A stretch of DNA of 64,000 nt from Patescibacteria group bacterium (GCA_026415975.1 JAOAFZ010000002.1:49390-113389), one strand, 5' to 3'. Positions 22,119 to 54,067 are shown, counted from the first letter of the stretch. The notes: a model not told the origin generated them from the sequence alone. Numbers and translations are program-made.

Positions 22119-22176
22119 CCGGCACCGCCGGCATTCGTTATTGGAACGCAAGAACGGTGGTATCAGGCTTTCCGCG

Positions 22177-26828: not shown

Positions 26829-26889
26829 GTACTTTGCCGCCTCAAGCGCGTTGGGAATACTTAGTCTTCGGTCAAGCTTACTTACCGTT

Positions 26890-28020
26890 TCATCTTTTTC
26901 GATGGTGCCACCACCACAGAATCCCTGCACCTGCACCCACAACCAAAAGAACAAGAACTACAGGAAAATACTCCACCCGTCTTTCTACAATCAGTGTCAG
27001 CTCTGGAGCTTGGTCCTCTGCTGAAAGTGCGACTGTCTTGCTTCCAGTAAAACCGTTATCATTCACAGCAAACTCTTCGGTTGTTCCGGTTACTGGCAGG
27101 CGGACAATACCCTTATCGTTTGTTGTTCCTTCCGAGCGGCTGGTTGTGGCCCGTACCAAAACTCCCGCAACACCGCTACCCGTTTTGTCTCTAACCCAAA
27201 TCGTCACGGTGCGTTGTGCCTCTTTTTTTGAGCCTGCATCGTCTTTTGGATTTTTGGGAGCCTTCGTGATCGAGACGAGAGCGGGTTCCTCTGGGGTAGG
27301 TGTGGGCGTTGATGGTATCGGTGCCGAGAGCGCCAGGTTTCTGAAAGAAACCAGCGAGACTGTCTTAGCACTTATTTCGTTAGACCACGGACCGCTAGCG
27401 CACCCGTTTCCTGCTCGAATACGGAAGTAATACCTAGTGCTTGGCCACAGGTGCTCAACAAGATAGTTTCGGCTGCTTTGTCCTCCAATTGGCTCCGCGC
27501 CAAACTCTAGCCCTCCTTCTGTTGTTCCGTATGCGAGCACATAGTGGGTAAGCGGGGGATCTGCTTCTGCAAAGTAGAGCCGGATTGCAGTTGGCGATTC
27601 AGAAATAGCGGAGTAAATCCAGGGAGCTTTTGCACCGGGTGCTTGGCGTTGGCAAACGGGTGGCGCTGGCATTTCTGCCGTGCCTGCTCCAGTGCCTATT
27701 GACGGAGGCGACGCCCCAATTGTGGGAGTAGCAGATGGTGCAGGTGGAGGAGTTTCTGTGGGAGTTGGTGTGTTCGTTGGTGCTAATGCGGGCTCGTACA
27801 ATCCAAACGCCGAGAACTCTGTTGTTGCGCACGTTACCGAATTTTGCACTGCATTTACGACACAGTCTGCTAGCTCATTAAAAGCTGAACCGTTCCACCG
27901 GTACATGGATAGCTCAGATTCACTAACACCAGCGATATCAGTATCGGAGTACTTGAAGGTGATGCTCACTGGCTGATCGAAGGTGGTAATCTCACTGGTA
28001 ACACTGAGCTGGGCATTCAA
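26890..28020 (-). CDS. C-terminal part of the large surface protein (FN3, CarboxypepD_reg-like, C-terminal TM anchor), separated from the upstream ORF by a frameshift
   Basis: An FN3-like segment (STRYYFRIRAGNGCASGPWSNEISAKT), VTIWVRDKTGSGVAGVLV...GIVRLPV, and a terminal VVLVLLVVGAGAGILWWWHHRKR. This frame stays open upstream to 28092 (…TAVSSAIGKPAGLQDVGIAIYNLNAQLSV…), overlapping the end of the 1400-aa ORF. Confidence 0.6.
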   Translation of the reverse strand: MNAQLSVTSEITTFDQPVSITFKYSDTDIAGVSESELSMYRWNGSAFNELADCVVNAVQNSVTCATTEFSAFGLYEPALAPTNTPTPTETPPPAPSATPTIGASPPSIGTGAGTAEMPAPPVCQRQAPGAKAPWIYSAISESPTAIRLYFAEADPPLTHYVLAYGTTEGGLEFGAEPIGGQSSRNYLVEHLWPSTRYYFRIRAGNGCASGPWSNEISAKTVSLVSFRNLALSAPIPSTPTPTPEEPALVSITKAPKNPKDDAGSKKEAQRTVTIWVRDKTGSGVAGVLVRATTSRSEGTTNDKGIVRLPVTGTTEEFAVNDNGFTGSKTVALSAEDQAPELTLIVERRVEYFPVVLVLLVVGAGAGILWWWHHRKR

Positions 28021-31000
28021 GTTGTAGATGGCAATCCCAACATCCTGAAGTCCAGCCGGCTTACCGATGGCACTGCTGACGGCGGTGCGCGGTCAAGCCG
28101 TTGAATCTGAAACTGCGCGGTGCTACCAAAATAGCCAGCTGGAACTGCGAGAGAAATTCCGCGACCTGTTCCATCGAGGAGGGAAATGGTACCGCCTACT
28201 GAGGGAAGTATTGTATCGGTCTCTACCTCAAGAGCCGATGAGCTACCAGCACAACCTGTTGTGGTGATCTCGGCAACTGCACCCTGCCCAATGTTATGGG
28301 CCAGATCAGTGGTGCTTGGTCGCACCACGTAGGTGGTGCAAGGCAGAAGGCCTAGGATAGAAGCAGTGTGAGCGGTAACTCGCGGATAAAGATTTGTTTC
28401 GCTCGTAACGCTGGAGGGCAGGGTTACACCATAGTAAAGACGGCTTGAGCCTGACTCCGTACTGTTCCAGGTTGCGCTGATCGTGGTGTCAGATGGCGTA
28501 TACAGACTACCAAAGATTCCAGGCGGTGTGGTATCTTCTGTGATCGGCTCATTGAAATGCACTGACCAGTTGTAGAGAGCAGAGCTATAAAGTGATGTGG
28601 TGGAATCTGAGTCGCGCAAATTTCCACGAGCAGAATCAACAGAGTCGGCACCGGGGCGTGCGCCGGATACACCGGTATAGGCGTATCTGAGGAGCTGATT
28701 ACTTCCGCTCGGAGTGCTGTCGAGGGTAATTCGTACAGTATCTTGACCATCCATTGCCACGGAACTGATTGATGCTGTGTTTCCGTCGTCGGCGTATTCA
28801 AAGCCCATATGTGTTTGTGCTAAAACCTGTACGGTATCAAAAACCAACGGTGATTCCGGAACTTCGAACCGTACAGAGACAACATCCCCGTTCCGGACTA
28901 CCTCAGCCGGTATGAGTGCAGTTGTGGTCTGCCCGTTGAGTACCCGACTTATGGCCTTGCCATAGTACTCCCTAAGCCGTCGATAGCCTGAGTTTGTAAG
29001 GTAGATGTTATCTGAGGCATACGTAAATTGATAGCGTGGCCCGATCATGTAAATATCCGGGTTGTTTCGTGCGACATTCAGCTGTGCAATAACAAGTGGC
29101 GCGGTTGCTAGGTTATAAGCGGTAAAATTACTGCTTTGATCGATAAAAAATGGAACGTTTCCTGTTTGATCCGCTGCGTTGTTTCCGTCGGTTTCGTAAT
29201 CTTGCTGCCACTGGTTCAAGAAGGTTTCGTAGGCAAGGCCATCGGCAAAGTTAGCTGGGCCGTGAATCATGGCTACACCGGCAAAGCGGTACCCGAACCC
29301 GCCGCTTGCTGCGATCGTTCGCGCGTTTGTTATCTGAGTAATGCCGTTTGCAAACGATGTGGTTGTACCTCCTTTGCGTAGCTGATCATATGTGGCTCCG
29401 GGAATCCCGTTTCTGGTGACCACCATTCCTAGATTGCCTCCAGTAAGCGCCGTGACCGTGTTCCCGAGGGCTGATGCAGGAGTCTCAACTGCAGTTGCCG
29501 GAAGGTTATCGTCTACATCGTCGTTCTCGATCAAGCTCACAAATGCGGTGCCGGTTCCATTGAGCTTTACATTGTTGTATGGCTGTGAGGTAGTAAGAGC
29601 AGGCGCACCATCGTAACCGATTGAAAGGCTTTGGCCAGCAAGAAGTATGTGAAAATACCCAGGCTGAACAGGACCGTAACTTACGCTTTGCACGAGCAAC
29701 CCGTCGGTGGGAGGGGAAGTAGAACGAGGGGTAACCTCGAAGCGCAGGTATCGGCCTTCGTCTGAAGGCGAGACTGTGTACGATTGCGCCGTTGCTCCGG
29801 CAATTGCCGTAAATGGACCGCCGGCAGAAAACGATGACATCCAACGGAAAGTGATGCCACTTTCTGGGTCACCGTTTGGATCAAGATACTGATATGAGCC
29901 AGTTATCGTTTCCCCAGTTGCGACTGTACCGCTTATTACTACGTTTTGTGCAATGGGGGGAGCGGGGGTTGTAGATATGGGCGTTGCGGATTGAATTGCT
30001 GAGGCCGAGCCCATGCCCTGACTGTTTATTGCTGAAACCCAAAACTGATACAGTTGCCCATTTGTAAGTCCGGTTACGATTGCCGAGGTTGCTGTTGATA
30101 GGCCATCTGGGAATACGCTAAAGCTACCACTTGTTCCGGGACGGTATTCAATTTGATAGTCGGTAATTGGAAAGCCGTTGTCTCCAGGCTCTGTCCATGA
30201 CAAAGACACCTGCGCATCCTGAGGAGTTGCGGTAAGGCCGGTTGGAGCATCGGGCACTTGTGCCTGAGACTCCGGGCCGGCTGAGGTTGTTGGTGGGTTT
30301 TGGGCAAACTTTCGAACCAAAACCCAGTCGACTGCCAAATCGGAGATATCGGTTGCCCCCGAATTCGACCCACGAAAATACCCTAGCCAAAGGTAAAACG
30401 ACCCCGACCAGCCTGGGGTATGGGGCGACTCGGTACCTGGTAATTCAGTTCTGTTCCGGTAAAAGTAGACATTTGTACTAGTAATCGCCGTTCCGATTAT
30501 GTACTTTGTACCGGTTGTCATCGACGCAAGTAAGTTGGCGGGGGAAGCAATGTCGTACGATGCACTTGCTCCTGAGGCCGCAAGCCCATAATGATCTGAT
30601 GCGCCACTACCGCGCAAGAAATATGCTAGCGAGGCGGCACTGGGGTTGTTTGAGGAATCGGTGTCTGTCCTGTTGGCAATCATAAGACCGGACTGGCTCA
30701 GATCGTTATTTATCCAGGTTGCCTGAGCTTCTGCAATCATATTTGGTTGCGTTCCAACGGTTGCATTTGTATACACAGCACCGGATTGAATCGTAATGGT
30801 ATCCCCGGCAAGCGAATAACCACTTGCCCCATTGGTAGAGGTCCAAACCGAGCCATCAAGAGTAGTAAAGCTGTCGAAGAAATCAAAGGTTGCACTCCCG
30901 TTTGTTCCTGCTGAGGCAGAAGGGGAGCCATAGTACAAGTATATTGTTTTATCTGACGATGCCGGAATGGTAGGAACTCGTATCCAGATTCGCGTGGATG

Positions 31001-32219
31001 CTGTATTGCAACCATTAGTCCCCTCTGTCTCGATCCAATAGAACAAATTCGTAGTCTGATCCGAATCGCGCACCCGCATGTCGTCACAATCTGCTTGGAG
31101 CTTTCCAGCGCCAATGAGTCCCGCTGTGTCTATGGTAAGGAGCACCTGAAAATCGGATAGAACAAAGGACTCGTTGTTTGTGATTGTAATCGGAACACGG
31201 TATGTCGTACCATCAGGAAAGCTACCTGGAACTATTGTCGGTGTAGGTGTCGGCGTTGGTGTAGGTGTCGGTGTTGGCGTGTCTGTCGGCGTCGGCCCGC
31301 TAAACGGCGAGTCTGCCACCCAAGCAGGCCCGGAAGGTGATCCACCTATATTGAGCGTCCCGTTGCTTGGTCCGCCAGACGCCGAGGAGTAATCGCGCAG
31401 AATGCTCCCTTCGCCTTCATCGAAGTGGTACAAGGAGGCAGTATTCGCATCAGGAATAAATGGTGCAGACGGAAGCGTGAATGAGGATGTATACCGCAAG
31501 TTTGTTGAGATCCGTAACTCATCTAGCTTTCCGTTGTATGACGGGTACGCCGAACCTGCATCATGTTTTTCAGCACCGAGAACAATATAAGGGTCGCGAA
31601 TGCAGATTCCACCCCAGCTGCCGCCGGGACCCTGACAGTAAGGTGTGCTCTGAATGCTCGCAGGGACTCCATCAGGGTACGACACATCGCCATCCGGGCC
31701 ATCCTGTTGCTGTTCGAGCACGCCGTCGACAAATATTGACATCTGTCCATCGGAGTAACGGCGCGTTACAGCAATATGATGCCAGTTCGAATCGGTTACG
31801 TCGGTTGTACCGCAGATGGTTGTTGCCTCATTGAGATCATTTACCACGCCAAATGCAATTGCACCGTTTTCGGTAGGCGAGATACCGTACTTTCTTCCGT
31901 AGTTGAAGCGGTTTTTGTCGTAGATAATGTTTCCGTTAATCCAGTTATTTTGGTTCACATTGCATCCGACGTCTGTTGCACCGGCTCTACTTTGAGTGCC
32001 CGCTTTAATCCAAAATTCGATCGTAAAGTCGGTATCCCCGACATCTGCCGGGCGGTGCGGGGAATCGACAGCGATCACCACCCTGTCCTGATCGAGCGCG
32101 TTCACGCCATTCCCGTAAAATTGGAGTGAGTACTGAGCATCCGCATCCTGTTCTGCGGATATCGAAATAGCCGGCGGATTGGCTACATATTGACGTGTTA
32201 ACACCCAGTCTACAGTCAT
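28017..32219 (-). CDS. large surface protein, intact central ORF (LamG-like, PT linker, DUF2341-like module, FN3, esterase-like region)
   Basis: LamG-like DFTIEFWIKAG...WHHIAVTRRYSDGQMSIFVDGV, then the PTPTDTPTPTPTPTPTPTPT linker. The DUF2341-like module reads YRVPITITNN...CDDMRVRDSDQTTNLFYWIE...IYLYYG. The FN3 segment is PDAPTGLTATPQDAQVSLSWTEPGDNGFPITDYQIEY. HILLAGQSLSIG resembles GQSN-type sialate-O-acetylesterase motifs. There is no signal peptide at Met 32219. Confidence 0.7.
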   Translation of the reverse strand: MTVDWVLTRQYVANPPAISISAEQDADAQYSLQFYGNGVNALDQDRVVIAVDSPHRPADVGDTDFTIEFWIKAGTQSRAGATDVGCNVNQNNWINGNIIYDKNRFNYGRKYGISPTENGAIAFGVVNDLNEATTICGTTDVTDSNWHHIAVTRRYSDGQMSIFVDGVLEQQQDGPDGDVSYPDGVPASIQSTPYCQGPGGSWGGICIRDPYIVLGAEKHDAGSAYPSYNGKLDELRISTNLRYTSSFTLPSAPFIPDANTASLYHFDEGEGSILRDYSSASGGPSNGTLNIGGSPSGPAWVADSPFSGPTPTDTPTPTPTPTPTPTPTIVPGSFPDGTTYRVPITITNNESFVLSDFQVLLTIDTAGLIGAGKLQADCDDMRVRDSDQTTNLFYWIETEGTNGCNTASTRIWIRVPTIPASSDKTIYLYYGSPSASAGTNGSATFDFFDSFTTLDGSVWTSTNGASGYSLAGDTITIQSGAVYTNATVGTQPNMIAEAQATWINNDLSQSGLMIANRTDTDSSNNPSAASLAYFLRGSGASDHYGLAASGASASYDIASPANLLASMTTGTKYIIGTAITSTNVYFYRNRTELPGTESPHTPGWSGSFYLWLGYFRGSNSGATDISDLAVDWVLVRKFAQNPPTTSAGPESQAQVPDAPTGLTATPQDAQVSLSWTEPGDNGFPITDYQIEYRPGTSGSFSVFPDGLSTATSAIVTGLTNGQLYQFWVSAINSQGMGSASAIQSATPISTTPAPPIAQNVVISGTVATGETITGSYQYLDPNGDPESGITFRWMSSFSAGGPFTAIAGATAQSYTVSPSDEGRYLRFEVTPRSTSPPTDGLLVQSVSYGPVQPGYFHILLAGQSLSIGYDGAPALTTSQPYNNVKLNGTGTAFVSLIENDDVDDNLPATAVETPASALGNTVTALTGGNLGMVVTRNGIPGATYDQLRKGGTTTSFANGITQITNARTIAASGGFGYRFAGVAMIHGPANFADGLAYETFLNQWQQDYETDGNNAADQTGNVPFFIDQSSNFTAYNLATAPLVIAQLNVARNNPDIYMIGPRYQFTYASDNIYLTNSGYRRLREYYGKAISRVLNGQTTTALIPAEVVRNGDVVSVRFEVPESPLVFDTVQVLAQTHMGFEYADDGNTASISSVAMDGQDTVRITLDSTPSGSNQLLRYAYTGVSGARPGADSVDSARGNLRDSDSTTSLYSSALYNWSVHFNEPITEDTTPPGIFGSLYTPSDTTISATWNSTESGSSRLYYGVTLPSSVTSETNLYPRVTAHTASILGLLPCTTYVVRPSTTDLAHNIGQGAVAEITTTGCAGSSSALEVETDTILPSVGGTISLLDGTGRGISLAVPAGYFGSTAQFQIQRLDRAPPSAVPSVSRLDFRMLGLPSTT

Positions 32220-33220
32220 ATCGGTAATATCGGTGGTGCCAGCGTTTATACCATTAAAATGGCCCAGCCATCAATAAAACGGATCCGACCAGGTGCCATC
32301 ATAGGGGCTGGTCGGACCCGTAACGACCGTGCGATCCAGGTAGTAGTAAAGGTTGCTGTTAGTAACTGCCGTTCCGATAATGAACTTTTGGTCGAATGCA
32401 ATTGCTCCAAGATCGTCAACTGGCGCAATATCGTAGCCTGCCGCGCTACCTGAGGCACCGTTGCCAAACAGATTGTTCACACTGGCACTGCCACCGCGGA
32501 GAATAAAAGAAAGTGACGCGGCGGTGCCGTTTCCTGAGGTGATGTTGCGTGTGTCTGCGATGATAAGACTGGCAATACCAGCCTGAGTTGCGCTATTCCA
32601 GCTCACCTGAGCCTCAGCTATCGTGTTTGGCTGAGTGCCAACGGTTGTGTTGGTGTAAACCGCTCCAGAGTTTATCGTAAGGGAACTTCCGCTCTAAGAG
32701 TATCCCGATACGCCATTAGTCGAGGTCCAAACAGAATTATCAAACGAGGTAAAATCATCGAAGAATGGGAACGTATTTGCTCCGTTTGATGCCGCAGGCA
32801 ACGCGGAATCTCCGTAGTAGACGTAGATATATCGCGTAGAATTTGCCGGTATCGAGGGTACTTCCACCCAGATTCAGGTAGCAGTTGTGTTGCAGCCTGT
32901 GGAGTTATCAGTTTCGATCCAGTAATCAAGGAGAGTGGACTCATCTGCGTCCCGAAAACGCAGATCGTTGCAGTCGCTACGCAACTTGTTTGCTGAGATT
33001 AAAGCGGCAGTATCGAGAGTAACGAGAATCTGGTAGTTCGTAAGTGCTGAGTTGCCGGTATTATCGATTGAGATGACACGGCGGTACTGAGTGTTGCCTG
33101 GGCCTGAGGCAAAGACCTCTGGTGCTTGGTACGAAAACCTAAGTAGAAGCCGATTACTCCGACTCCCACTGCAAGAAAGAAAGCCCACGAAAATCGTATT
33201 AGAGTACTTATTAGCCTCAT
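32220..33220 (-). pseudogene. disrupted N-terminal portion of the same surface-protein gene (signal-anchor plus a first DUF2341-like module)
   Basis: ATG 33220 gives MRLISTLIRFSWAFFLAVGVGVIGFYLGF (TM anchor). A frameshift at the T-run near 33133-33138 leads into YQAPEVFASGPGNTQYRRVISIDNTGNS.... This is the same frame as ORF 28017-32219 but is interrupted by TGA 32874-32876, TAG 32694-32696 and TGA 32271-32273. Each stop aligns to R, L and L respectively in the downstream paralogous module. Confidence 0.75.
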
Positions 33221-33386
33221 TATACAAAGTTTTTATACAAAGTTTTTGGCAGTATGTCTTCTGCAAGCTCGTACTAAATCTGCAATAAGTGTTTTTAGTA
33301 ACATCTACATCAAAGAGTCATTTGGTTTGGCTTAAGCTTCGAATGAAGGCGTAACAAATAGAAACTGTAAGCGATTGCTTAAGAGG

Positions 33387-33617
33387 CTATTTTTTCCTTA
33401 AAGCTCCCACTGCCTCGCCCTCGATTGGAATAACTGGATCTATCAGTGTTTGGGAACTCATCAGCATGCTCCCCAGAAGCATGATAATGCCGACAATCTG
33501 GCTCGCGGTAAACGTATTCTGAAAAAACACTACCCCAATTACCAGTGCCGATGCCGGCCAGGCAAGCTCACAAATGGTGGCGACACGAGCTGGAGTGTGT
33601 TTTAATCCTCGGTAATA
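33387..33617 (-). pseudogene. orphan 3'-terminal fragment of an EamA/DMT transporter gene
   Basis: It encodes ...YYRGLKHTPARVATICELAWPASALVIGVVFFQNTFTASQIVGIIMLLGSML..., homologous to only the last ~75 residues of the EamA gene at 41736-42737. Homology ends at 33617. Confidence 0.8.
33550..33617. repeat. 68-bp perfect direct repeat, left copy (candidate att core)
   Basis: Identical base-for-base to 41899-41966 (gatgccggccaggcaagctcacaaatggtggcgacacgagctggagtgtgttttaatcctcggtaata), compared by eye. Confidence 0.9.
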
Positions 33618-33648
33618 GGGTAATTCGGCCGCCGGATGTAATTCTCTG

Positions 33649-34116
33649 CTACCGGATATAGTCTTCAAGGAGGTGATAGTATTTATCCTGAATGTCTTTC
33701 CGGACCCAGCGTTCGGTGAGGCGTTTTATTGAGCCATTTTCTGCACGGATAGCTGTACAGTTTTCATAATAGAAGCCGGAGCCGGTGGCCAAAAACAGAT
33801 ACGAGGGATCCCAGCGCCGAAGTATTGTATGAATCCTGTCCGCGATCGTCTCACGATCAATACGGCGCATATAGTCTACTTCCACGACCATGACATCGGT
33901 TTTATCCTGCGAAATCAATACATAATCCGGTGCGGCGGTAAGATTCTCGAGAATTTTGCGGACATAGGGGTGCCGTTTATGCTCACTAAGCGTCTCGATG
34001 GAGTCGGCGTGACCGATCGGGATTACCGTATATCTGCCAGCCTCGCGGAACATTTGTTCAAAAACAGTAGCAGTGATCTTCCGACGAATGAGTCTGTGGA
34101 GAGCTCGGGTTTCCAT
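33649..34116 (-). CDS. small PD-(D/E)XK-like (Hjc/restriction-endonuclease-fold) protein
   Basis: The pattern VFEQMF...PDYVLISQDKTDVMVVEVDY fits the E...D...E-x-(K/D) layout of the fold. This assignment is tentative. TATACT sits 6 nt upstream of the ATG. Confidence 0.45.
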   Translation of the reverse strand: METRALHRLIRRKITATVFEQMFREAGRYTVIPIGHADSIETLSEHKRHPYVRKILENLTAAPDYVLISQDKTDVMVVEVDYMRRIDRETIADRIHTILRRWDPSYLFLATGSGFYYENCTAIRAENGSIKRLTERWVRKDIQDKYYHLLEDYIR

Positions 34117-34122
34117 AGCCTC

Positions 34123-34128
34123 AGTATA
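34123..34128 (-). promoter_or_regulatory. -10 box (TATACT) 6 nt upstream of ATG 34116
   Basis: The plus-strand agtata reads TATACT on the minus strand. Confidence 0.45.
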
Positions 34129-34490
34129 GTACTTCCGAATGAAAAAAGTCAGTGTCCCCGCACACGATTTCTTCGATGATCAAGTCTTCATACACTCCTT
34201 CCCAATCTCTGTGTGTACGGGTCGGAAAGTTCTTCTTCGGACATGCGATGCCTTAAGAGGGCAAACCGGAAGTGGCCGTACTATATCTTGGGGTTTACTT
34301 CAACAACTCGGGAACGCAGATGCCGAGGAGAAACCAGCGAAGCTTGCAACCGTGGAAACTTTCTTTTATACACAACAGAAAAGAAAGAGTATAGGGAGTG
34401 CCATCTTTCGAGCGTTGCAGGTTGATTCTTTCGATGCTGTAGCTAAAATTAGTGTCGAATCGCCTCGATTTCTGATTTGGTACTGTTTTC

Positions 34491-35398
34491 TCACCCAATC
34501 AACATCCCGTCCGACACCCACCCCCGCAGCCGCTCCGGCAGTACTTCGTCTATCCTCCGCATATCCTCATCCACAATCTCAATCAGCGTCAGGCCATACT
34601 TTTGGTAGATCGCGACCTTCTCCTCCCGCCGTTCCGTGTACACCGGGTTATCCATTCCCCAGGCCTCGATATATACGTTGCCCTTGCCGCAATCGGGGAT
34701 CCAGAAGTCGCAGAAAAGGCATTCGGCTACCGGAACCCGCCGTTCGTACCCATGGCAGATCCGGTTGCGGAAGAGCCAGTCGTCGATAATCTGCTCCATG
34801 CGGCTGCGGACAATGTGCCCGTCGGTACAATAGATGTCCGGGCGGGGAAGTCTGCTAGTGGGGAGGTGCAGATCGCACTCTGTGTTTGTGGTTTCCGGAA
34901 GCGGGCGTTGCAGGTGCTGCTGCCGGAACACGGCAAAGAGTTTGGTGCAGGCCTCACCGGAGATCTGAGTATGGGGGTATTCGCCGGTGTCGGTGCGGGT
35001 AAAGGGAACGATGTTTTGCAGGTGGTCGCGGTGAATGCGCCGGTACGAGCTGGTAGGCTGTATGCGTACCTGCACGGGAAGCCGGCCGCCCCAGGCATCC
35101 GGCTCAAATTCCCACTGTACCCCTGAGGCGGCTACGAAGGGCCCCAGGAACTCGTGGGTGGAGTAGTTGTACAGAAAAAGCGAGTTCCCGGGCTGAACGC
35201 CATCAACAAAGTGATAGCTGCAGCCATGCCAAAGAGGTTGCGATCCAGGCATTCCGCCTCGGACTGAGCGTTGCAGCAGAAGATATAGGCATGGTCGGGA
35301 AGAGTTTGATCGAGTAGGGGGGCTGTGTCGGCAGCAGCGGGTATCCCGGGAGTGCTCCCTGGGAACTTATCCTGAGAAGTTTGTGCTGGTATTTGCAT
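34491..35398 (-). pseudogene. DCD (PUA-like) domain fused to a PD-(D/E)XK-type nuclease domain; one frameshift near 35200-35230
   Basis: ORF 35132-35398 gives HAYIFCCNAQSEAECLDRNLFG. ORF 34491-35252 continues in another frame with SYHFVDGVQPGNSLFLYNYSTHEFLGPFVAASGVQWEFEPDAWGGRLPVQVRIQP. Together they closely match the plant-type DCD consensus (IFxCNxxTxxECxxxxLFGLP...PGxxLFLxNYxxxxLxGxFxAxSxG...P.QV). The C-terminus VRSRMEQIIDDWLFRNRICHGYERRV...CDFWIPDCGKGNVYIEAWG...YQKYGLTLIEI resembles the nuclease module found at the N-termini of HelD/Rep-like helicases. Confidence 0.65.
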
Positions 35399-35403
35399 GA
35401 TTT

Positions 35404-35409
35404 ATTCTA
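35404..35409 (-). promoter_or_regulatory. -10 box (TAGAAT) 5 nt upstream of ATG 35398
   Basis: The plus-strand attcta reads TAGAAT on the minus strand. Confidence 0.45.
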
Positions 35410-35629
35410 ACGGAAAGGTATGCAGGAGTGTCAAATTCAGTTTGTGCTAGAATACTATAGTCTCTATAGAAACCATGACGTAACTCGCGAAACCGTTCCT
35501 CGCCTTTGCTTCAAAAACGCTTTCTGATCCGTCCGTAAGCAAGGGGGTATGAACCTGCTGAATGCATATGAATGGTGAAGCTGGAGCACATACTTTACAC
35601 TGGGGATTTTTGTCAGAATTTATGTCTAG

Positions 35630-37195
35630 ATGGTATCTGCTTTACAGAGTAGAATTCATGACATTATTTTAGCGTTCACTATGTGCGAGCATCAGAGCAT
35701 ATCAGAGTTGTCGCTAGCACACCAGCGAGCAATAGATTGTATCCAGATTATTCCGAAAGAAAAATTGGAGCAGATTGAAGCAGATTCAGACAGCTCGCCC
35801 CCAACTATTCAGGGAACCGGTGATACACTTCTTACTGCCAGCACAGCGGAAACTGGCGCTCCTGAATTTGAACTATATTACGCAGTAGCAACAAACAGAA
35901 TTGCAATACAGGCCAGAGAACTGCTATTAAAGGGAGTTTCCCGAAAACAGCTCCTCGAGATGCGATCCGAGCTTGCTCGTTTCCAGAGGCACAGTTTAGC
36001 CCTCTATCTTGGGGAAACCGAATTGAGATTACCCCGATCAACTCAAGATGTCATGGAGATGGAAGTAAACAATTACGCCACCCTGGTAAATATGGTCAAT
36101 AGAGCAATCATGCTTCAGATTAGAGACCTGGCAACAACAGATTCTGAGCCAGACATTACCGTGCGGGCTTTAGATCTTGCCCATATGTATCTTGAAATGG
36201 AGGAAAAAAACTTGGCGGTAGAAAGACGTATACTGCAAGAAGAAGTTCGCATTAGCGTACATCGTGATGTGATGTGGCAAGCAAGAACATATGCATGCAA
36301 TGGGTTCATGAACAGTCCGGGCTGGCATAACCTCAGCGATAATGATAGAGAAAGTTTCTTGAAACTGAGCGAACACGACCGGGCTTTTCTACTTGGTCTT
36401 GAATTAAAAGCACAACAAGCCGGCATGGCACGAGATCGTATCAAGCTTGTAAGTGTGCACGATATAGATGCAAACATAAAGGATGCAGAAATCGGTCCGT
36501 CGAAACCGGGAAATGCCATAGGCACACGGATTGACAAACTCGACAGGATAACCGATATACATCCGAGACAGCGTCTACAACTAACCGACAGTTCTCAAGT
36601 TGATCCTGATCCTCAAATTGCCGAAGTTTGCAATGCAATGTACGTCCGATCCGGATTGAGAGATTCAGTAATTTTTAAGGATGCAAGAAATTTTGCAGAG
36701 CGCTGCTGTCGTGCACAACTTCCCTTTTATTTACTGACAGCAAATATGTACCTTTTTGGTAAAGGAACTGCTATGGGTCTTGGATTTGATCATGCGGATG
36801 TTCAAGGAATGCACCACAATAGCTATGCTTCTCAGGGGAAACCTCACCGGCTGATGGAAATTGCTCTCGAACACTTGGATTATTCAATATTCCTCTTTGT
36901 AGATGATCAGGATAGAAGAAGTTGCGAAGCGATAGCCCGTGGCAGTATCTTCGAAGCCGTGCACCTTCCACTGCAAGAGGTCTACTTTTTTTGTGCTCGT
37001 GTACAGGGCGAAGGGGAGCAAGGCGGACACCGATTCGCAGAAAGACTTGCGGAAAAAAATATCGCATTTGGGCAAAACAGACGTGAATCACGGGAAGATG
37101 GTTTGTATGGATATCAGGGAGCAAACCGGCTCCTGGATCTTTATACTGCATGGCAAGAAGGGAAATTTAAGTATTTGACCCTGTTGTGTTCGTGA
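35630..37195 (+). CDS. hypothetical protein (521 aa, no recognisable domain)
   Basis: A long ORF in coding-like sequence, first gene of a same-strand four-gene run. No motif was recognised by eye. Confidence 0.5.
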   Translation: MVSALQSRIHDIILAFTMCEHQSISELSLAHQRAIDCIQIIPKEKLEQIEADSDSSPPTIQGTGDTLLTASTAETGAPEFELYYAVATNRIAIQARELLLKGVSRKQLLEMRSELARFQRHSLALYLGETELRLPRSTQDVMEMEVNNYATLVNMVNRAIMLQIRDLATTDSEPDITVRALDLAHMYLEMEEKNLAVERRILQEEVRISVHRDVMWQARTYACNGFMNSPGWHNLSDNDRESFLKLSEHDRAFLLGLELKAQQAGMARDRIKLVSVHDIDANIKDAEIGPSKPGNAIGTRIDKLDRITDIHPRQRLQLTDSSQVDPDPQIAEVCNAMYVRSGLRDSVIFKDARNFAERCCRAQLPFYLLTANMYLFGKGTAMGLGFDHADVQGMHHNSYASQGKPHRLMEIALEHLDYSIFLFVDDQDRRSCEAIARGSIFEAVHLPLQEVYFFCARVQGEGEQGGHRFAERLAEKNIAFGQNRRESREDGLYGYQGANRLLDLYTAWQEGKFKYLTLLCS

Positions 37196-37291
37196 CAATA
37201 CCCTGACATTCTGCTGATGCTATTCGTTTGTCAAGATTTTGCAACCCGTGCGAGAAATAATTTCTAATCTACCCGTTATACTTAACGCAAC

Positions 37292-39451
37292 ATGCCACTT
37301 GAACTAGGGAGCGCAAACCCCGACCCGGAAATCGAGGCGTGCAACGTCGTTTGCTCAGCTCACGCACGTATTAAAGAAATGCTAGAGCAAGTTGAGGAAC
37401 GCCAACAACAGCTTTTGCTATTACAGGTACAAGCTGCCGGATTTACCCTAAATCGCCTTGCGGAAATCACTAGTCAAGAAGAGTATGAAAAATATATTGC
37501 AGAGCGTCTTACCTTGGCACAACAGGTTTCAGTCGCAAGGGAACTGACCGATCTTGAGAGTATGAAAGGAGTGCTTTTAGGGGGTGGCAACCTTGATGTC
37601 GAATTAGTAGCGATGACGAATAACATGATACAACGAATCGCAGTAAGCGGCCAACTCGCTGGTACTCCAGAATATATTCGCGCAGTTCTGGAGGGTTTAC
37701 GTAATACTGCCGCACTCCGGTTACGGCAAAATGCAGAACAGCAAGGAGGTGCCGGGTCGCTGCTCCCGGGGCAAGCGCGAATATTGGAGCGTGGTTTCGA
37801 GAGGGTAGCTCAGCTAAATGCGGGAGAGCTGTCCCCAATGCAACTCGAGTGCGTGCTGCAACGACCAGATGTCACCACACTCCTCGAAGCCGCACCCTAC
37901 CTGTTGCTGCAATACCGAACCCCAGGGGAAGGGGAGCATCGGGAGTTAAGTCTGGTTATCAGTCGAGAACAGGGGGGAGAAAACAAAGCGTATCGTAACG
38001 ATAGCAAAATTATCCTCGCCGGCCGCGCTATTGAAATTCCTTTCGAAACTGCCCCGACACATGAGCGTCAGCTCGAAGAATTTTCACGGCGCCTCAGGGG
38101 CTTTGTTAATGTTGCGCAAGTATATTTCCGTAATGGTTTTGAACCCGCAGGAGGGCTCGAAAAGGTATTACGTGAGCAGGCAAAAATATTGGCTGATTTC
38201 GGATACAGTGTTACGTTGATTGGGGGAAATCCACCTAACGAAATGTACGGTCGGGAATTGTTGGAATTATTTCAGCATATTGTAATTGATGGAGCTCATG
38301 AACGCCACCCAACTGCACTGGAAATTGCACGAAAAATGGAAAGTGGTAGCGTGCCGGACAAGTATCAGGAGCATTATGACTACCTATTAAATCAACTCAA
38401 AGATGCGTTAAAACATATGCATATCTGGATCGCGCACAATCCTCATGTTCCGCGCAACCCGCCTTTTACCGCCGCATTACTCGAACTCTGGCGGAATCGA
38501 GAGGCACATAAGCTAAAAAACGCAAGAAAGCTCGCCCTTTGGGTGCATGATGTCGGGCCCGTTATGGAACCCCATAAGTTTCCACCACTAGACGAGTACG
38601 GTCGCTATCCCGAACCCTGGGACTCAACTTTCAACCAGAAACTTAAGGGTCCCGATGTAACCTACTTCTGCGTCTCGAAAAAAGTAGCTGATCAGGTGGG
38701 GAATATTCCACTTCCTCCCGGAAAAGATGAAGCTACATTCCGTGCCCCAGATATCGTTACGATACATCACGGACACGATGTTGAGGCAATGATTAGTCCA
38801 TACCATGAACTCGTAAGGAGAATCATACCGTATATCCGTCGTGACCGTTTTAAGAATGTTATCTTGCAAACAGGCCGTATCGGAGATAGGAAGTGCCAGC
38901 ACCGAAGCATTACAGCATTACGATTTCTGGAAGATACTCAGTTAATTATTACTGGAGCACCAAAGATGACTAATGGCGTCATAGACGACCAATATTGGGA
39001 TTACATCAAGAAGTTAGCAAAATATTTTGACGTGGAAGACCGGATCGTATTTGTTTACGATATCGTTGGACCAATCCCTGACGGCGGAGTCTATGAAAAA
39101 GTGACAGGGCAGCTAGCCCATTTATCCGAAGTCGTAGTAGTACCGTCCAGCTCTGAGGGATTTGGTATCGATGCGGCGAATTTAGCAGGAGTACGTATAC
39201 CAATTGTCGCAACCGACGATCCTGCCTTGAAAGAGGAAAATCTGGGAGATTATGCAACATACGTTCCTACGACAGCCGATGGCATCGAATTGGCGACAGT
39301 GATCGCAACAGTATTGAAAAAACCGGAAGTGAGTCGGCGACGGGAGATTCTTGCGCGGGACTGGAGGGGTCAGATGGAACGTGCGCTCCAGTATCTGGGA
39401 GATTCGAATGGACAGGTGTTTGAGCCTAATAGCGAAAGCGGATATAGTTAA
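37292..39451 (+). CDS. two-part protein: an unknown N-terminal region of about 270 aa plus a GT4-type (GT-B) glycosyltransferase
   Basis: The GT-B N-half starts near VNVAQVYFRNGFEPAGGLEKVLREQAKILADFGYSVTLI. The C-half is VVVVPSSSEGFGIDAANLAGVRIPIVATD (E-x7-E-type motif). TATACT sits 9 nt upstream. Confidence 0.7.
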   Translation: MPLELGSANPDPEIEACNVVCSAHARIKEMLEQVEERQQQLLLLQVQAAGFTLNRLAEITSQEEYEKYIAERLTLAQQVSVARELTDLESMKGVLLGGGNLDVELVAMTNNMIQRIAVSGQLAGTPEYIRAVLEGLRNTAALRLRQNAEQQGGAGSLLPGQARILERGFERVAQLNAGELSPMQLECVLQRPDVTTLLEAAPYLLLQYRTPGEGEHRELSLVISREQGGENKAYRNDSKIILAGRAIEIPFETAPTHERQLEEFSRRLRGFVNVAQVYFRNGFEPAGGLEKVLREQAKILADFGYSVTLIGGNPPNEMYGRELLELFQHIVIDGAHERHPTALEIARKMESGSVPDKYQEHYDYLLNQLKDALKHMHIWIAHNPHVPRNPPFTAALLELWRNREAHKLKNARKLALWVHDVGPVMEPHKFPPLDEYGRYPEPWDSTFNQKLKGPDVTYFCVSKKVADQVGNIPLPPGKDEATFRAPDIVTIHHGHDVEAMISPYHELVRRIIPYIRRDRFKNVILQTGRIGDRKCQHRSITALRFLEDTQLIITGAPKMTNGVIDDQYWDYIKKLAKYFDVEDRIVFVYDIVGPIPDGGVYEKVTGQLAHLSEVVVVPSSSEGFGIDAANLAGVRIPIVATDDPALKEENLGDYATYVPTTADGIELATVIATVLKKPEVSRRREILARDWRGQMERALQYLGDSNGQVFEPNSESGYS

Positions 39452-39496
39452 AGAATCTATCGTGGCATTCGAGCTGAAAGCCTTGGCAACAGTATG

Positions 39497-39536
39497 TTGT
39501 ATCACAAGATACAACAGAACACCGCGGGAACCCGCG
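39497..39536 (+). terminator. two adjacent hairpins after the stop at 39451 (possible attenuator or terminator)
   Basis: TTGTATC-acaa-GATACAA (39497-39514) and CGCGGG-aa-CCCGCG (39523-39536). No U-tract follows, so function is uncertain. Confidence 0.25.
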
Positions 39537-39580
39537 ACACCACGCGATTATTAGATTACAATTTAAATAATAAATAAATA

Positions 39581-40954
39581 ATGGCTACTATCGCTTTTTT
39601 ACATAACGCACTAGGTAAAACAGATGGTGTTTCTCTTGAAGTGGATAAATGGCGCTACGTGCTTGAAACAAAGATGAAGCACAACGTGCTCTATTGTGCC
39701 GGTAACGATGATGTAAGCCATGTTCATTGTGTACCGGAGTTGTCGTTCATGCATCCCCGATCAGAGAAAATTTTACGCAATGCTACCGTCCAGTTAAAAG
39801 ACTTTACCGAAACCGAACTGAAAGAGGAGATTTTTAAACTGAAAGATATTATTAAAACAAAGTTGCTCGCATTCATTAGAAAGCATAAGATCGATCTACT
39901 CATTCCGAATAACCTCCTTTCGGTCGGCTACCACATTCCTGCCTTAATCGCGCTGCACGAGATTATCACCGAAACCAAGATACCGACGATAGCACATAAC
40001 CATGATTTTTATTTCGAAGCCAGTGGCGAGGTGAATCCCACCTGTAAGACCGTCTGGAATCTACTTGATTTATACACTCCGGTACGAGGAAAAAATGTGC
40101 AGAATATCACTATTAACCGTATCGCCCAAGCGGAGCTTTTTGCACGAACCGGCGTAAAAGCACAAGTCGTTCCAAACGTATTTGATTTCAAGCAACCAGC
40201 CTGGAAAGAAGACGCGTACAATGCGGATTTCAGAAAATCTTTTGACATTGGTGAAAACGACATCGTGTTGTTACAAGCAACCCGTATCATGTTGCGCAAA
40301 GGCATAGAAAACGCGATTGACATCGTTGCGGAAATGAATACCCCCGAGAATCGGAGGAGACTGCTGGAACGGAAGTTGTACAACGGCAAACAATTCACGA
40401 AAGACAGTAGAATAATCCTCCTATGTGCCGGTCGCCGTGAGATTTTCGGCACGACTGATACCTATTACAACGGGTTACTGGATCGTGCAAAAAGACAGAA
40501 CGTAGCTATCCGGTTTGCGGGTGAATACGTTAAACATAGTCGTGGTAAGAAAAACGGGAAGAAAGTATATTCATTATGGGACAGCTATGTGCACTCAGAT
40601 TTCGTTTCTTATCCAAGCTGGTGGGAAGGATGGGGTAATCAACTAATTGAAGCAGTCTTTGCACGACTTCCTGTTGTTTTGTATGAATACCCGGTTTATA
40701 AATCGGACATTGCCCGTTCACATCTGGAAGTCGTCTCACTCGGTGACAAGATCTCCTCAATTGACAAAAACGGCCTAGTTAGTATAGACCGCGCAATAGT
40801 ACAGCGTGCTGCCGCGGAGATAGTATCAATCCTTACCGATCCCGCACGATACTCACACATAACAGAGAAAAATTTCCGCATCTGCGCGAAACGGTATTCC
40901 TATGAGGTCCTTGAAGCATTGATTCGTAAGATTATGAAGAAAATCGGAATGTAA
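39581..40954 (+). CDS. GT4-type glycosyltransferase
   Basis: The N-terminus IAFLHNALGKTDGVSLEV, and the C-half DFVSYPSWWEGWGNQLIEAVFARLPVVLYEYPVY, which is the GT-B EX7E region. Confidence 0.7.
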   Translation: MATIAFLHNALGKTDGVSLEVDKWRYVLETKMKHNVLYCAGNDDVSHVHCVPELSFMHPRSEKILRNATVQLKDFTETELKEEIFKLKDIIKTKLLAFIRKHKIDLLIPNNLLSVGYHIPALIALHEIITETKIPTIAHNHDFYFEASGEVNPTCKTVWNLLDLYTPVRGKNVQNITINRIAQAELFARTGVKAQVVPNVFDFKQPAWKEDAYNADFRKSFDIGENDIVLLQATRIMLRKGIENAIDIVAEMNTPENRRRLLERKLYNGKQFTKDSRIILLCAGRREIFGTTDTYYNGLLDRAKRQNVAIRFAGEYVKHSRGKKNGKKVYSLWDSYVHSDFVSYPSWWEGWGNQLIEAVFARLPVVLYEYPVYKSDIARSHLEVVSLGDKISSIDKNGLVSIDRAIVQRAAAEIVSILTDPARYSHITEKNFRICAKRYSYEVLEALIRKIMKKIGM

Positions 40955-40955
40955 C

Positions 40956-41633
40956 ATGCACTTACGCATCCCCTACCTGGACAAAGCGCCAATGGAGCTT
41001 CAGCAGAGGGGTTTTCTCGATAAAATTCCATGGGATTTGTTGCCACCTCACCGGTGTTTGCCATACCATGGAAACAGCCTTACGTATCCAACTTTTTTCA
41101 GAATCGGTTATTCGAAATTCGGATTGTTTGTCAAGATAGAATGTATTGACTCGCGAATCTCAACAAATTACATGACTGATTTCAGCGATATATTCCGAGG
41201 AGATGTTTTTGAGCTCTTTCTGTGGCCAGACACATCTATTCCTGTGTATTTCGAATATGAGATATCGCCACTTGGTGTAGAGCTACCCCTCCTGGTTGCA
41301 AATAACGGCGGTACTTTCATGGGTTGGCTCCCATGGCACTACGAGGAGGACCGCCGGATACACAAGCGAGTTCGTGTTACCGGTGGGTGCGCTGTTGCAG
41401 GGGCGAGTATTACCGGGTGGATAGTAGAGTTGCTATTGCCTTTTGCACTCTTGAAAGGGCTGAAAAACGTTCCACCAATGCCGGGAACACAGTGGAAAGG
41501 CAACTTTTTCCGAATGGATTACGATGATAGTCAAATTGTGAATAAGTGGGAGTGGGATCCGCGCACGAAAGGGGAGTTTCACCAGTTCCGTAAATTTGGA
41601 ACTCTGCACTTTGAAGGCAATCTGGCAGTGTAG
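40956..41633 (+). CDS. CBM9-like / DOMON-like carbohydrate-binding domain protein
   Basis: FFRIGYSKFGLFVKIECIDS..., GDVFELFLWPD, YFEYEISPLG and WKGNFFRMDY resemble the carbohydrate-binding family 9-like fold. Confidence 0.5.
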   Translation: MHLRIPYLDKAPMELQQRGFLDKIPWDLLPPHRCLPYHGNSLTYPTFFRIGYSKFGLFVKIECIDSRISTNYMTDFSDIFRGDVFELFLWPDTSIPVYFEYEISPLGVELPLLVANNGGTFMGWLPWHYEEDRRIHKRVRVTGGCAVAGASITGWIVELLLPFALLKGLKNVPPMPGTQWKGNFFRMDYDDSQIVNKWEWDPRTKGEFHQFRKFGTLHFEGNLAV

Positions 41634-41735
41634 AGTAATTGGGGACCAGATTAGGACGTACCGGTCATAGACGGTACGAAAATATTCCTGGCACGATACC
41701 CTTCGGGGTAAAGCGCCTGGTAATCGGCGTCTCTC

Positions 41736-42737
41736 TTATTTTTTCCCGATCGCCCCTACTACCTCTCCCTCGACCGGCACTGCTGAGTCTTTCTGTGTCC
41801 GTGAGATCACCAGCATACTGCCGAGCAGGATAACGATGCCAATAATCTGACTCACTGTAAACGAATTCTTGAAGAACACGATTCCGATTATTAGCGATGA
41901 TGCCGGCCAGGCAAGCTCACAAATGGTGGCGACACGAGCTGGAGTGTGTTTTAATCCTCGGTAATACAGAAGCATTGCCGCGGCTCCGGTAATCAGCACA
42001 ATCATAGCCAGCGCACCCATCTGCTCCGGAGTAAGGGACACAAACTGCGAAAGCTCGTGCGATCTGCCGAATACATCACTGGCACCGGTTAGGGTCTGGA
42101 ACGCGGAGAAAGTCGCAAACAGGAGGAGCGAGAATACCGCAGCGATTGAAAACCGCAGAAACGCCAGTGTACCAAATGAGACCTTGTGCAAAATCAGCTT
42201 CCCGAACGAAGTGGCGGAGCCCCAGCTTGCTGCAGCAAGAAGAGCAAGGAAGCCCGCGAGGGCAGTTCCGGTGCCGGTATCTAGATTAGGGCGCATATCC
42301 GGAAAAACGATCAGGTATACACCAGCCATTGCCACTGCGGCGAGCAAAAGAAAATGCCGCGTAATCTTCTCTTTCAGTACCAGACCCGCAATAAGCACCG
42401 CCCAGATCGGCTGTGTCTGCTGCAAGAGCACCACAATCGAGAAGTTGATGAAGTTGATCTGGGTAAGCGCATACGTATACAGAATTACGGCTACCGAACT
42501 GGCAATTACCCCGATAAAAAAAACCGGCCCCCAATCAGCGTAGGTGAGTTTCTTGAGCTCATGCCGGGTTCTCCAGAAGAAGGGGAGTATAAGACCCAAA
42601 CCCAGCAGATGCTCCCAGAAAGAAACCAAGATCGGGGGGAGTGTATACAGACTCGTCCGTAAAAAGCCGTCCAGACTCCACAGGATCGCGGTAAGAACAA
42701 TTAACAACGGACCGAACGGGGAAAGTGATTTTCCCAT
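41736..42737 (-). CDS. EamA/DMT-family transporter (intact)
   Basis: A 333-aa protein with 10 TM helices and two EamA-like halves. It contains the right copy of the 68-bp repeat. Confidence 0.85.
   Translation of the reverse strand: MGKSLSPFGPLLIVLTAILWSLDGFLRTSLYTLPPILVSFWEHLLGLGLILPFFWRTRHELKKLTYADWGPVFFIGVIASSVAVILYTYALTQINFINFSIVVLLQQTQPIWAVLIAGLVLKEKITRHFLLLAAVAMAGVYLIVFPDMRPNLDTGTGTALAGFLALLAAASWGSATSFGKLILHKVSFGTLAFLRFSIAAVFSLLLFATFSAFQTLTGASDVFGRSHELSQFVSLTPEQMGALAMIVLITGAAAMLLYYRGLKHTPARVATICELAWPASSLIIGIVFFKNSFTVSQIIGIVILLGSMLVISRTQKDSAVPVEGEVVGAIGKK
41899..41966. repeat. 68-bp perfect direct repeat, right copy
   Basis: Identical to 33550-33617. Confidence 0.9.
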
Positions 42738-43039: not shown

Positions 43040-43505
43040 GACCCTGAAGGCTATTGTTATTGTACCGGATCATATTGTCCTGTCAAGATTACGTTATGAA
43101 TGCCCGGACAGGAAGACATTCGCGCCGCAGCACGCTGATAGGTATCCGGTATTTTGAATAAAAATTCTAAGGTTATCAGTATGCTACCGGATTACCGGAT
43201 ATGGGACATTTAATTCACCTACATCAAAAACGGGGAAAAGTATGTGTATCCTGCAACTTTCATGGATCTATACACCAGATAGATTGTAGACTGGCATCTG
43301 TCTCACCGGCATTCTAGGATGCGGTAGAAAAGAAAAGAACGCCTGCATAAAGATCGTTCGTTCAGATCAGGGCCTAGAATATACAAACGAAACCTACACA
43401 AACCTTCTTTCTTAAGCTTGATATACAGATCTCTATGAGGAAAAAAGGCAAGCCCCTGGGAGAATAGAACCCATACAACGCTAAAAAGCCTCCGTACCAA
43501 CACAG
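43040..43505 (+). mobile_element. decayed IS3-family (rve/DDE) transposase remnant
   Basis: Across three frames with stops it reads RIWDI*FTYIKNGEKYVYPATFMDLYTR*IVDWHLS (compare W.TDITYI....YLA.V.DL.SR.IVGW.MS), IVRSDQGLEYTNETYTNLLS (compare HSDRGSQYTS) and ISMRKKGKPLGE*NPYNAKK (compare SMSRKGNCWDNA). It may extend upstream towards about 42890. Confidence 0.6.
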
Positions 43506-43669
43506 ATTACTATATCAAAATCAATTCATGGAAAAAATACTCAAAAAAAACTGAATACTTGATAAGACTGGCTCCCGGTATTGAATGGGGTGATTTTTTA
43601 ATTAGTATGAGTTTTAGGCAAATATACCTGTCAGGATTCTAATCTTATCGGGGCCTATACTGCCAGCAT

Positions 43670-44340
43670 ATGAAACTCATTGTATGTTACGGAGAAGTCC
43701 TTATAGATATGATTTCGACCATATCCAGCAGCTTGGTCGACGCGGACGGGTTCCTTTAAGAGGTTCGGGGGTGCGCCCGCAAATACGGCAACAGGAATTG
43801 CAAAACAGGGAATTCCGGTTTCGTTCCTGGGTAAAGTCTGGAAAGATCCATTCGCCGCTTACTTGAAAGCGACACTCGAAAGCTATGGCGTAGACATCTC
43901 ACCTCTGGTAGAAAGCGAAACCGACAAGACGACACTCGCGTTCGTGTTCCTGACCGAGAACGGGGAGCAAGATTTCACATTCTATCGGGATGCCCACGAG
44001 TCGATTACCGCGCCCGAGCTATCGTTTCCGAGGGATGCCGCTATTCTGCACTACGTGTGAAAATCAACGAACAAGAAATGCGGCTCCTCGCCGGCACGGA
44101 TTCGCCAGAAGAAGCGGCGGGAAAGCTCTTCGCAGACCGGACCGTTTCACTCTGCATAACGATGGAAGCGAACGGGTGCTACCACAAGACCAGGAACTCA
44201 GCCGGCATGGTACCCGCGATTTCTGTGGACGTGTGCGCGGAAGCTGGAATTCCTTTAACGCTGGTTTTCTGGCCGCGTTAGCCAGCTGTGACGCTAGAGG
44301 AGATTGCGGCAAACGTCTGACGCTTCGTTATCGGAGATGA
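43670..44340 (+). pseudogene. PfkB-family fructokinase pseudogene (at least 3 frameshifts)
   Basis: MKLIVCYGEVLIDMIS...* is followed, in other frames, by FKRFGGAPANTATGIAKQGIPVSFLGKVWKDPFAAYLKATLESYGVDIS...TLAFVFLTENGEQDFTFYRD...AAILHYV*, then KINEQEMRLLAG..., then ...GSWNSFNAGFLAAL (the GAGD region). Confidence 0.7.
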
Positions 44341-54053: not shown

Positions 54054-54055
54054 GG

Positions 54056-54061
54056 TATAAT
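54056..54061 (+). promoter_or_regulatory. -10 box (TATAAT) 6 nt upstream of ATG 54068
   Basis: Read directly from the sequence. Confidence 0.5.
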
Positions 54062-54067
54062 TACCTC

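Follow-up and report, generated by a model that had tools for sequence, protein, structure and literature searches.

A 68-bp direct repeat beside a truncated EamA gene looks like a recombination scar in a variable surface locus of a Patescibacteria group bacterium

We analysed a stretch of 64,000 nucleotides from a Patescibacteria group bacterium (GCA_026415975.1, JAOAFZ010000002.1:49390-113389; hereafter the window), in which an EamA transporter gene and an orphaned 3' end of such a gene share one 68-bp sequence as a direct repeat (Table 1). The intact gene is of full length when set against homologues of 327-341 aa, a Patescibacteria metagenome-assembled genome (MAG) lists its protein as a DMT family transporter, and the nearest other EamA protein among the 5.8e9 proteins used for homologue searches was 74% identical. 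In the direction of reading, the intact gene is divided here into E5, R (the right copy of the repeat) and E3 (the 3' end), and the truncated gene, or stub, into R' (the left copy) and E3', an alternative 3' end. The stub has 76 codons in all and is now non-functional. A sequence-only reading had taken the DNA bracketed by the repeats for an integrated island that entered the 3' part of the EamA gene, brought a replacement 3' end and displaced the original one, with the identical core as its attachment sites attL and attR. The repeat and the stub look instead like a recombination scar, and not like the ends of a self-mobile island.

The two copies of the repeat agree at every position (68/68); they are direct repeats, spaced 8,349 bp apart. 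On their 3' side, homology runs ungapped to both stop codons, which fall at the same position, with 110 of 159 nucleotides identical (69%) and a protein identity between E3 and E3' of 60% over 53 residues. The switch from 100% to 69% identity is a knife-edge in both copies, at 33549/33550 in the stub and at 41898/41899 in the intact gene. Upstream of the left copy no homology was detected, and a local alignment of the adjoining 31 bp against the intact gene scored about as shuffled sequences do (p = 0.2). The chance of a 68-base run of matches at a background identity of 69% is about 1e-11, and the identity of the two copies is not due to conservation, because eight relatives match this gene at only 68-77% over the R region (69 nt). 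Judged from these comparisons, the perfect identity is recent. In these respects the sequence-only reading was accurate: it had reported the perfect repeat and its spacing, an intact gene around the right copy and an orphan 3' fragment around the left one, homology kept at the protein level on the 3' side and stopping at 33617 on the other, and peptide strings for the two 3' ends that proved correct. The only other duplication within the window is that of a DUF2341 module.

Two further interpretations of the repeat were tried and rejected. A target-site duplication of a transposon or insertion sequence (2-15 bp) is out by the 68-bp length, the lack of terminal inverted repeats at the borders and the lack of a transposase inside. 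An upstream extension of the R homology ('ISG...AA', found by tblastn) was no better than shuffles, and it overlaps the conserved C-terminus of p155, the neighbouring gene described below. The spacer between p155 and R' contains the heptamer GAATTAC twice, 18 nt apart, and this heptamer occurs 13 times in the window, on both strands. The hexamer ATTACC is present on either side of the novel junction. These short repeats may represent microhomology or slippage at the join, or a motif.

Beyond the repeat, the two 3' ends have separate histories. Synonymous divergence (dS) between E3 and E3' was ~1.95, which is saturated, with a non-synonymous divergence (dN) of 0.21 and a dN/dS of 0.11, and R carried 0 changes in 68 positions. 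A low dN/dS together with a saturated dS indicates that the stub diverged as part of a working EamA gene and is not a decayed local copy; E3' comes from a separately evolved, once-functional EamA gene. By the same comparison, the lack of any change in R beside saturated divergence implies that both R copies derive from the gene of one species, and recently. The proposal of a replacement 3' end and a displaced one, 8.35 kb away, holds as a description of the topology. The 3' ends of E3, E3' and the genes of two relatives, L001 and L005, are roughly equidistant, at 52-60% amino acid identity. E5 is closest to L005 (76%), while over the 3' end E3 is 56% and E3' 52% (n = 50) identical to L005, and L001 and L005 are 70% identical to each other, which suggests that neither 3' end was inherited vertically with E5. 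An attempt to choose the native 3' end by its similarity to relatives failed, as E3 and E3' were equally distant.

We then compared gene order with that of seven relatives from five lineages. In all seven, EamA is followed by 0-3 variable genes, then by a 155-aa gene, 0-1 small gene, an aldehyde dehydrogenase gene in convergent orientation, Trans_reg_C and an epimerase gene, and the window retains the same frame from EamA to the epimerase, colinear with the relatives. The locus is a hypervariable region for the cell surface and its glycans within a conserved frame, which reads EamA, slot 1, p155, slot 2 and aldehyde dehydrogenase. Each slot of the window holds 7.6 kb of unrelated content, compared with 0-3 genes in slot 1 and 0-1 in slot 2 of the relatives. 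The variable genes after EamA in the relatives encode Lum_binding, APH and small unknown proteins; none of the slot-1 and slot-2 genes of the window was found in the relatives' loci, where p155 is never followed by an EamA stub. Look-ups of the exact EamA and p155 proteins returned no conspecific sequence, a 55-mer from R was absent from JGI metagenome contigs, and a scan of GTDB genomes for a conspecific or an empty site returned one distant relative only. An alignment of the intergenic sequence after p155 with that of the relatives, made for the native side of the joint, was too short and too diverged to be of use.

The gene p155 lies inside the bracket, so that the bracketed segment consists of E3, slot 1 and a native gene. 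Its product is 58-65% identical to the relatives' orthologues over 155 of 155 residues and ranks the relatives as core genes do (L005, then L001, then L008); since it is kept at this site in seven relatives and shows this core-like ranking, we regard p155 as native. It always stands between EamA and aldehyde dehydrogenase with variable genes on both sides, and its family comprises 11 clusters in the 5.8e9 proteins, restricted to this clade. The p155 sequence had no Pfam match and nothing significant against the PDB. An AlphaFold2 model (predicted local distance difference test score, 90.8) gave its best PDB matches, all of them weak (E >= 2.7e-4, TM <= 0.53), to Hjc ST1444 (E = 2.7e-4), RecU, PA-N and the SPARDA nuclease. 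Residues E25, D64, D71, K72 and E79 are invariant in the family, and the lysine of the ExK motif is not conserved. On the strength of this model, p155 is predicted to have a PD-(D/E)xK-type, Holliday-junction-resolvase-like fold.

Table 1 Features of the EamA locus and its surroundings, in positions of the window
Feature	Coordinates	Strand	Description
Epimerase gene	22168-23154	-	
Trans_reg_C gene	23290-24591		
Aldehyde dehydrogenase gene	24658-26019	+	Left bound of the variable region; 76-82% amino acid identity to relatives, same relative position
Slot 2	26020-33648		Second variable slot, headed by the EamA stub
Slot-2 block	26020-33386	-	Downstream of the stub; surface-protein genes plus two unannotated plus-strand open reading frames (ORFs)
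fn3/Big_1 protein gene	26890-28020	-	
DUF2341/LamG/fn3 surface protein gene	28017-32219	-	1400 aa (Pfam)
Broken DUF2341/LamG N-terminal part	32271-33266	-	Next to the stub
E3'	33387-33549	-	Alternative EamA 3' end, 53 codons and stop, in frame with R'; Pfam EamA E = 2.9e-8
R'	33550-33617	-	Left repeat copy, 5' end of the EamA stub
Novel junction	33617/33618	-	R' against the 31-bp spacer
Spacer	33618-33648	-	31 bp, between the p155 stop codon and R'
p155	33649-34116	-	155 aa; framework gene, orthologue of the gene between EamA and aldehyde dehydrogenase in relatives
Slot 1	34117-41735		First variable slot
DCD + PD-DExK nuclease gene	34491-35398	-	DCD is EVE/YTH-like; defence-system candidate; frameshift near 35225-35240
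Glycosyltransferase cassette	35630-41633	+	Four ORFs: u521, GT719, GT457 and a CBM9-like 225-aa protein
GT457	39581-40954	+	Similar to mannosylglucosylglycerate synthase
EamA/DMT transporter gene	41736-42737	-	333 aa; two EamA domains, E = 4.4e-36 (Pfam)
E3	41736-41898	-	3' end of the intact EamA gene
R	41899-41966	-	Right repeat copy, inside the intact EamA gene
E5	41967-42737	-	Part of the intact EamA gene
IS3-type transposase (rve) remnant	~43190-43551	+	Decayed; outside the bracket; stitched rve E = 2e-13
PfkB kinase pseudogene	43684-44340	+	After the rve remnant; stitched E = 7.6e-9

Any model of the locus must cover the knife-edge drop in identity from 100% to 69% at 33549/33550, the non-homologous joint at 33617/33618 and the native gene in the bracket. 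The explanation that we favour, and to which we give about an even chance, is that a single illegitimate, homology-facilitated join brought two divergent versions of one variable surface locus together in tandem. One species would have held two old versions of the locus, identical through E5 and R and divergent from about EamA codon 280 on, with E3 and E3' as old alleles. Version A would have comprised E5-R-E3, the glycosyltransferase and nuclease genes and then p155, and version B would have comprised E5-R-E3', the giant-surface-protein block and then aldehyde dehydrogenase. In version A, the illegitimate join would have put version B, from the first base of R in its EamA gene onwards, 31 bp downstream of p155; for the other end, the simplest anchor would have been homology within the aldehyde dehydrogenase gene or past it. 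What we infer here is that one species had both versions, which way the event ran and how it came about; among the observations that favour this account are that seven relatives share the frame, that the stub stems from a working gene, that both 3' ends are discordant with E5, that the cargo is local to this genome, that p155 is native, that no mobility signature was found and that the window is a glycan cluster.

Two routes to such a join can be envisaged, which are homology-facilitated illegitimate recombination after DNA uptake and an unequal exchange between two chromosomes. In homology-facilitated illegitimate recombination, as in the transformation of Acinetobacter and Streptococcus, one end of the incoming DNA is homologous and the other is joined non-homologously with a microhomology of at most a few bases, and the acquired DNA can begin inside a truncated gene. 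For the present locus this process is only proposed, and its anchor crossover is not locatable. DNA uptake is plausible because natural competence has been shown for Saccharibacteria, the only Patescibacteria for which this is so, and competence genes are widespread in the phylum (PMC10187176; PMC12455944). Once formed, the 68-bp direct repeats would be long enough for RecA-type recombination, and recombination between the R copies would delete 8,349 bp (33618-41966) and leave a predicted intact 333-aa hybrid EamA, for which we built the hybrid ORF.

Several points weigh against this tandem join. No conspecific genome or contig was found in the databases searched, so the two versions are deduced rather than seen, and version B must have lacked p155, which is present in all seven relatives. 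The discordance of the 3' ends with E5 rests on about 50 residues and amounts to ~1.5-2.7 standard errors. The doubled GAATTAC of the 31-bp spacer has no explanation in the account, and a Campbell-type insertion of a circle carrying R would give an equal topology. For such an insertion, by an integrase or by homology, the incoming DNA would have to match the host over R and yet be saturated in divergence alongside it.

The island proposed from the sequence alone would be a site-specific element, 33618-41898, that integrated in the 3' part of EamA, brought E3 and displaced a native E3', with R as attL/attR and with an integrase that has been lost or acts in trans. Its appeal lies in a topology identical to the one that e14 forms at icd, with icdC as the stub (PMC13626634). 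The repeat is perfect and direct, homology ends abruptly on one side and the right copy lies in the target gene. The cargo of a defence-like nuclease and glycosyltransferases is not found in the relatives' loci, its GC content is patchy (57-60% over the DCD gene versus 44-47%), and genomic islands have been reported in Patescibacteria (PMC12455944). However, the last gene of the segment is p155, which belongs to the conserved frame and keeps its usual order and orientation relative to EamA; with p155 inside the bracket the segment is therefore not purely foreign. Two checks proposed with the island went against it. A synteny comparison for a locus lacking 33618-41898 found p155 at the site in seven relatives, so that only the slot-1 cargo, and not the whole bracket, is absent from them. 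Composition compared with the flanks gave no signal: tetranucleotide composition and GC content of both slots did not stand out from the variation in the rest of the window (|z| <= 1.4), with only the DCD gene locally GC-rich, and the composition of the segment is not atypical.

Genes for mobility were lacking as well. No ORF in 33618-41898 and no ORF of at least 130 aa in the window matched a recombinase family (Pfam, NCBIfam and PADLOC), and no integrase, excisionase or other mobility gene was found among them, which extends to the window the earlier remark that the bracket holds no recognisable integrase. Apart from the decayed rve remnant, which lies outside the bracket, no trace of a recombinase was seen, and the cargo DNA had no match in phage or plasmid collections. 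A displaced native 3' end would be expected to be closer to L005 than its replacement, but E3' is no closer than E3. Moreover, an att core neither requires nor explains 68 bp of identity beside saturated divergence, and EamA stubs after p155 are lacking in the relatives. Of the island as first proposed, the topology and the replacement 3' end thus stand, and the mobile element and its att sites do not, given a native p155, a native composition and no integrase; we consider a site-specific integration unlikely.

The recent identity of R could also result from gene conversion. In that history, which we rate as quite unlikely, slot 2 would be an older import, with R'-E3', as a truncated piece of EamA, and the surface-protein genes arriving from a divergent relative, and the first 68 bp of the stub would later have been converted by the resident copy. 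This would suit a stub that heads slot 2, itself variable among relatives, an E3' that is about as far from E3 as the 3' ends of other genera are, and an adjoining DUF2341 gene whose decay suggests age. However, sequences that are ~70-77% identical lack an identity run on which conversion could start (R is 68-77% identical among relatives), and the converted tract would need one limit precisely at the end of the stub and a knife-edge boundary on its other side.

An artefact of assembly, in which two co-existing strain haplotypes were merged into a chimera and the 68 bp does not occur twice in any real chromosome, seems very unlikely to us. A chimera of the assembly graph would change over between sequences that have the repeat in common, but the joint between R', the 31 bp and p155 has no shared k-mer in the window, with only the 6-nt ATTACC in common, and reads must therefore support it; the remainder of the window is colinear with the relatives. 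The chimera would nevertheless be in keeping with a source that is a MAG, with an exact repeat whose 68 bp are within the k-mer range of assemblers, and with the two haplotypes that the favoured explanation itself posits. We see still less prospect for a functional alternative, in which the repeats and p155 would form a recombination hotspot that captures cassettes downstream of EamA and the 8.35-kb segment would be reversibly excised, as an integrase-free, nuclease-assisted cassette system; if this were true, surface-glycan genes and the C-terminus of the transporter would be switched together within the population. Finally, a duplication of the EamA 3' end within the genome, tandem or segmental, with later divergence in place would account for direct repeats on the same strand within 8.35 kb, but it is effectively refuted by synonymous sites that are saturated between E3 and E3' beside an unchanged R, and by a dN/dS of 0.11, which shows that the stub diverged while selection acted on it in a working gene and not as a dead copy.

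The locus adds a further case to kinds of event that are already known. As with e14, and also phage 21, in icd/icdC of E. coli, the 3' end of the intact gene lies at one border and a displaced homologous stub at the other, between direct repeats whose deletion gives an intact chimeric gene (PMC13626634), and here the hybrid ORF is a prediction. By contrast, e14 codes for an integrase and is excised when the SOS response is induced, whereas no recombinase was found here; the segment ends in a conserved chromosomal gene, and the two 3' ends are saturated at synonymous sites rather than near-identical, next to an identical block of 68 bp. The manB/cpsG deletions in the E. coli long-term evolution experiment are similar in that direct repeats bracket kilobases of DNA and RecA-type deletion leaves a functional hybrid (PMC13626634), but the deletion at the present locus is a predicted future behaviour rather than an observed one, and the repeat is just 68 bp.

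A second parallel is with the replacement-type flexible genomic islands of Alteromonas and Vibrio, in which genes for glycosylation, O-chains and giant proteins are exchanged through homologous recombination in flanking core genes (PMC3698932). Like these islands, the locus keeps the same position between conserved genes with content that differs among relatives, carries glycosyltransferases and a giant surface protein without mobility genes, and has a flanking core gene whose edge is highly divergent at low dN/dS (PMC3698932; here dS 1.95 and dN/dS 0.11). It differs in that two versions stand in tandem with the stub between them, instead of one replacing the other, and in that the within-species alternatives are proposed rather than observed.

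Regarding the genes in slot 1, the earlier count of two nuclease-like genes and a four-gene glycosyltransferase operon in the bracket was largely right, as p155 is nuclease-like in its predicted fold, the DCD gene carries a PD-DExK domain, and the cassette includes two GT4 glycosyltransferases (Pfam). The DCD gene matched PADLOC PDC-S69 (5e-35). ORF 35132-35398 encodes the start of its DCD domain (YIFCCNAQSEAECLDRNLFG) and ORF 34491-35252 the remainder, and stitching both frames improved the Pfam DCD E-value from 4.9e-11 to 1.6e-17; the frameshift marks either a pseudogene or an assembly error. In the cassette, u521 and GT719 (35630-39451, +) align to one 1192-aa ORF of L035 (5168-8746), a metagenome contig of 40% GC, where a GT457 homologue, 60% identical, comes next. 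The two ORFs thus represent a split or a fusion of a large GT4 enzyme gene. GT719 had no other homologue among the 5.8e9 proteins, and the idea that u521 and the N-terminus of GT719 are paralogues was dropped, as they have no similarity. GT457 scored 374 bits against NCBIfam NF041101, under the equivalog cut-off of 640. Genes for GH63/GH100-type hydrolases and several hexokinase-like genes lie near GT457, and its context may be one of compatible-solute or storage-glycoside metabolism rather than of surface glycan.

In slot 2, three ORF fragments at 32271-33266 align in order with residues 330-609 of the giant ORF, with one DUF2341 domain spread across two frames. At least three frameshifts thus seem to have cost the giant gene its N-terminal ~330 codons. 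Further pseudogenes lie on the other side of EamA, where the rve remnant and the PfkB pseudogene sit between EamA and the PRPP synthetase gene; pseudogenes cluster around the EamA locus, and ORFs are intact elsewhere in the window. The sequence-only reading had noted a decayed IS3-type transposase just outside the bracket at 43040-43505, and the rve domain is real, with coordinates that differ (Table 1). The whole window is a cluster for glycan and sugar metabolism, in which GT2 and GT4 genes are numerous and an ABC-2 exporter, WsaF, a flippase, epimerases and hexokinases also occur. Beside glmS there are two hexokinase-like genes in tandem and a GH100/GDE_C-hexokinase fusion (52974-55153 +, 48770-51079 +), and this density of sugar kinases near glmS is unusual for a reduced genome. 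The epimerase that closes the conserved frame is 89% identical in protein sequence to that of L001, versus 65-77% for its neighbours, which may result from recent import by recombination or from strong constraint.

A specialist is unlikely to be surprised by any of the implications of this locus. As a caution for the annotation of similar loci, a gene stub together with a perfect direct repeat does not suffice for the call of an integrated island. Homologous deletion could remove the segment that the 68-bp repeat marks, and such a loss would be traceable in strain-resolved studies of the lineage. If the tandem join of two versions is true, the locus would be a preserved intermediate of surface-locus reshuffling by plain recombination between strains, without the machinery of mobile elements, in an uncultivated bacterium of the Candidate Phyla Radiation (CPR) with a reduced genome.

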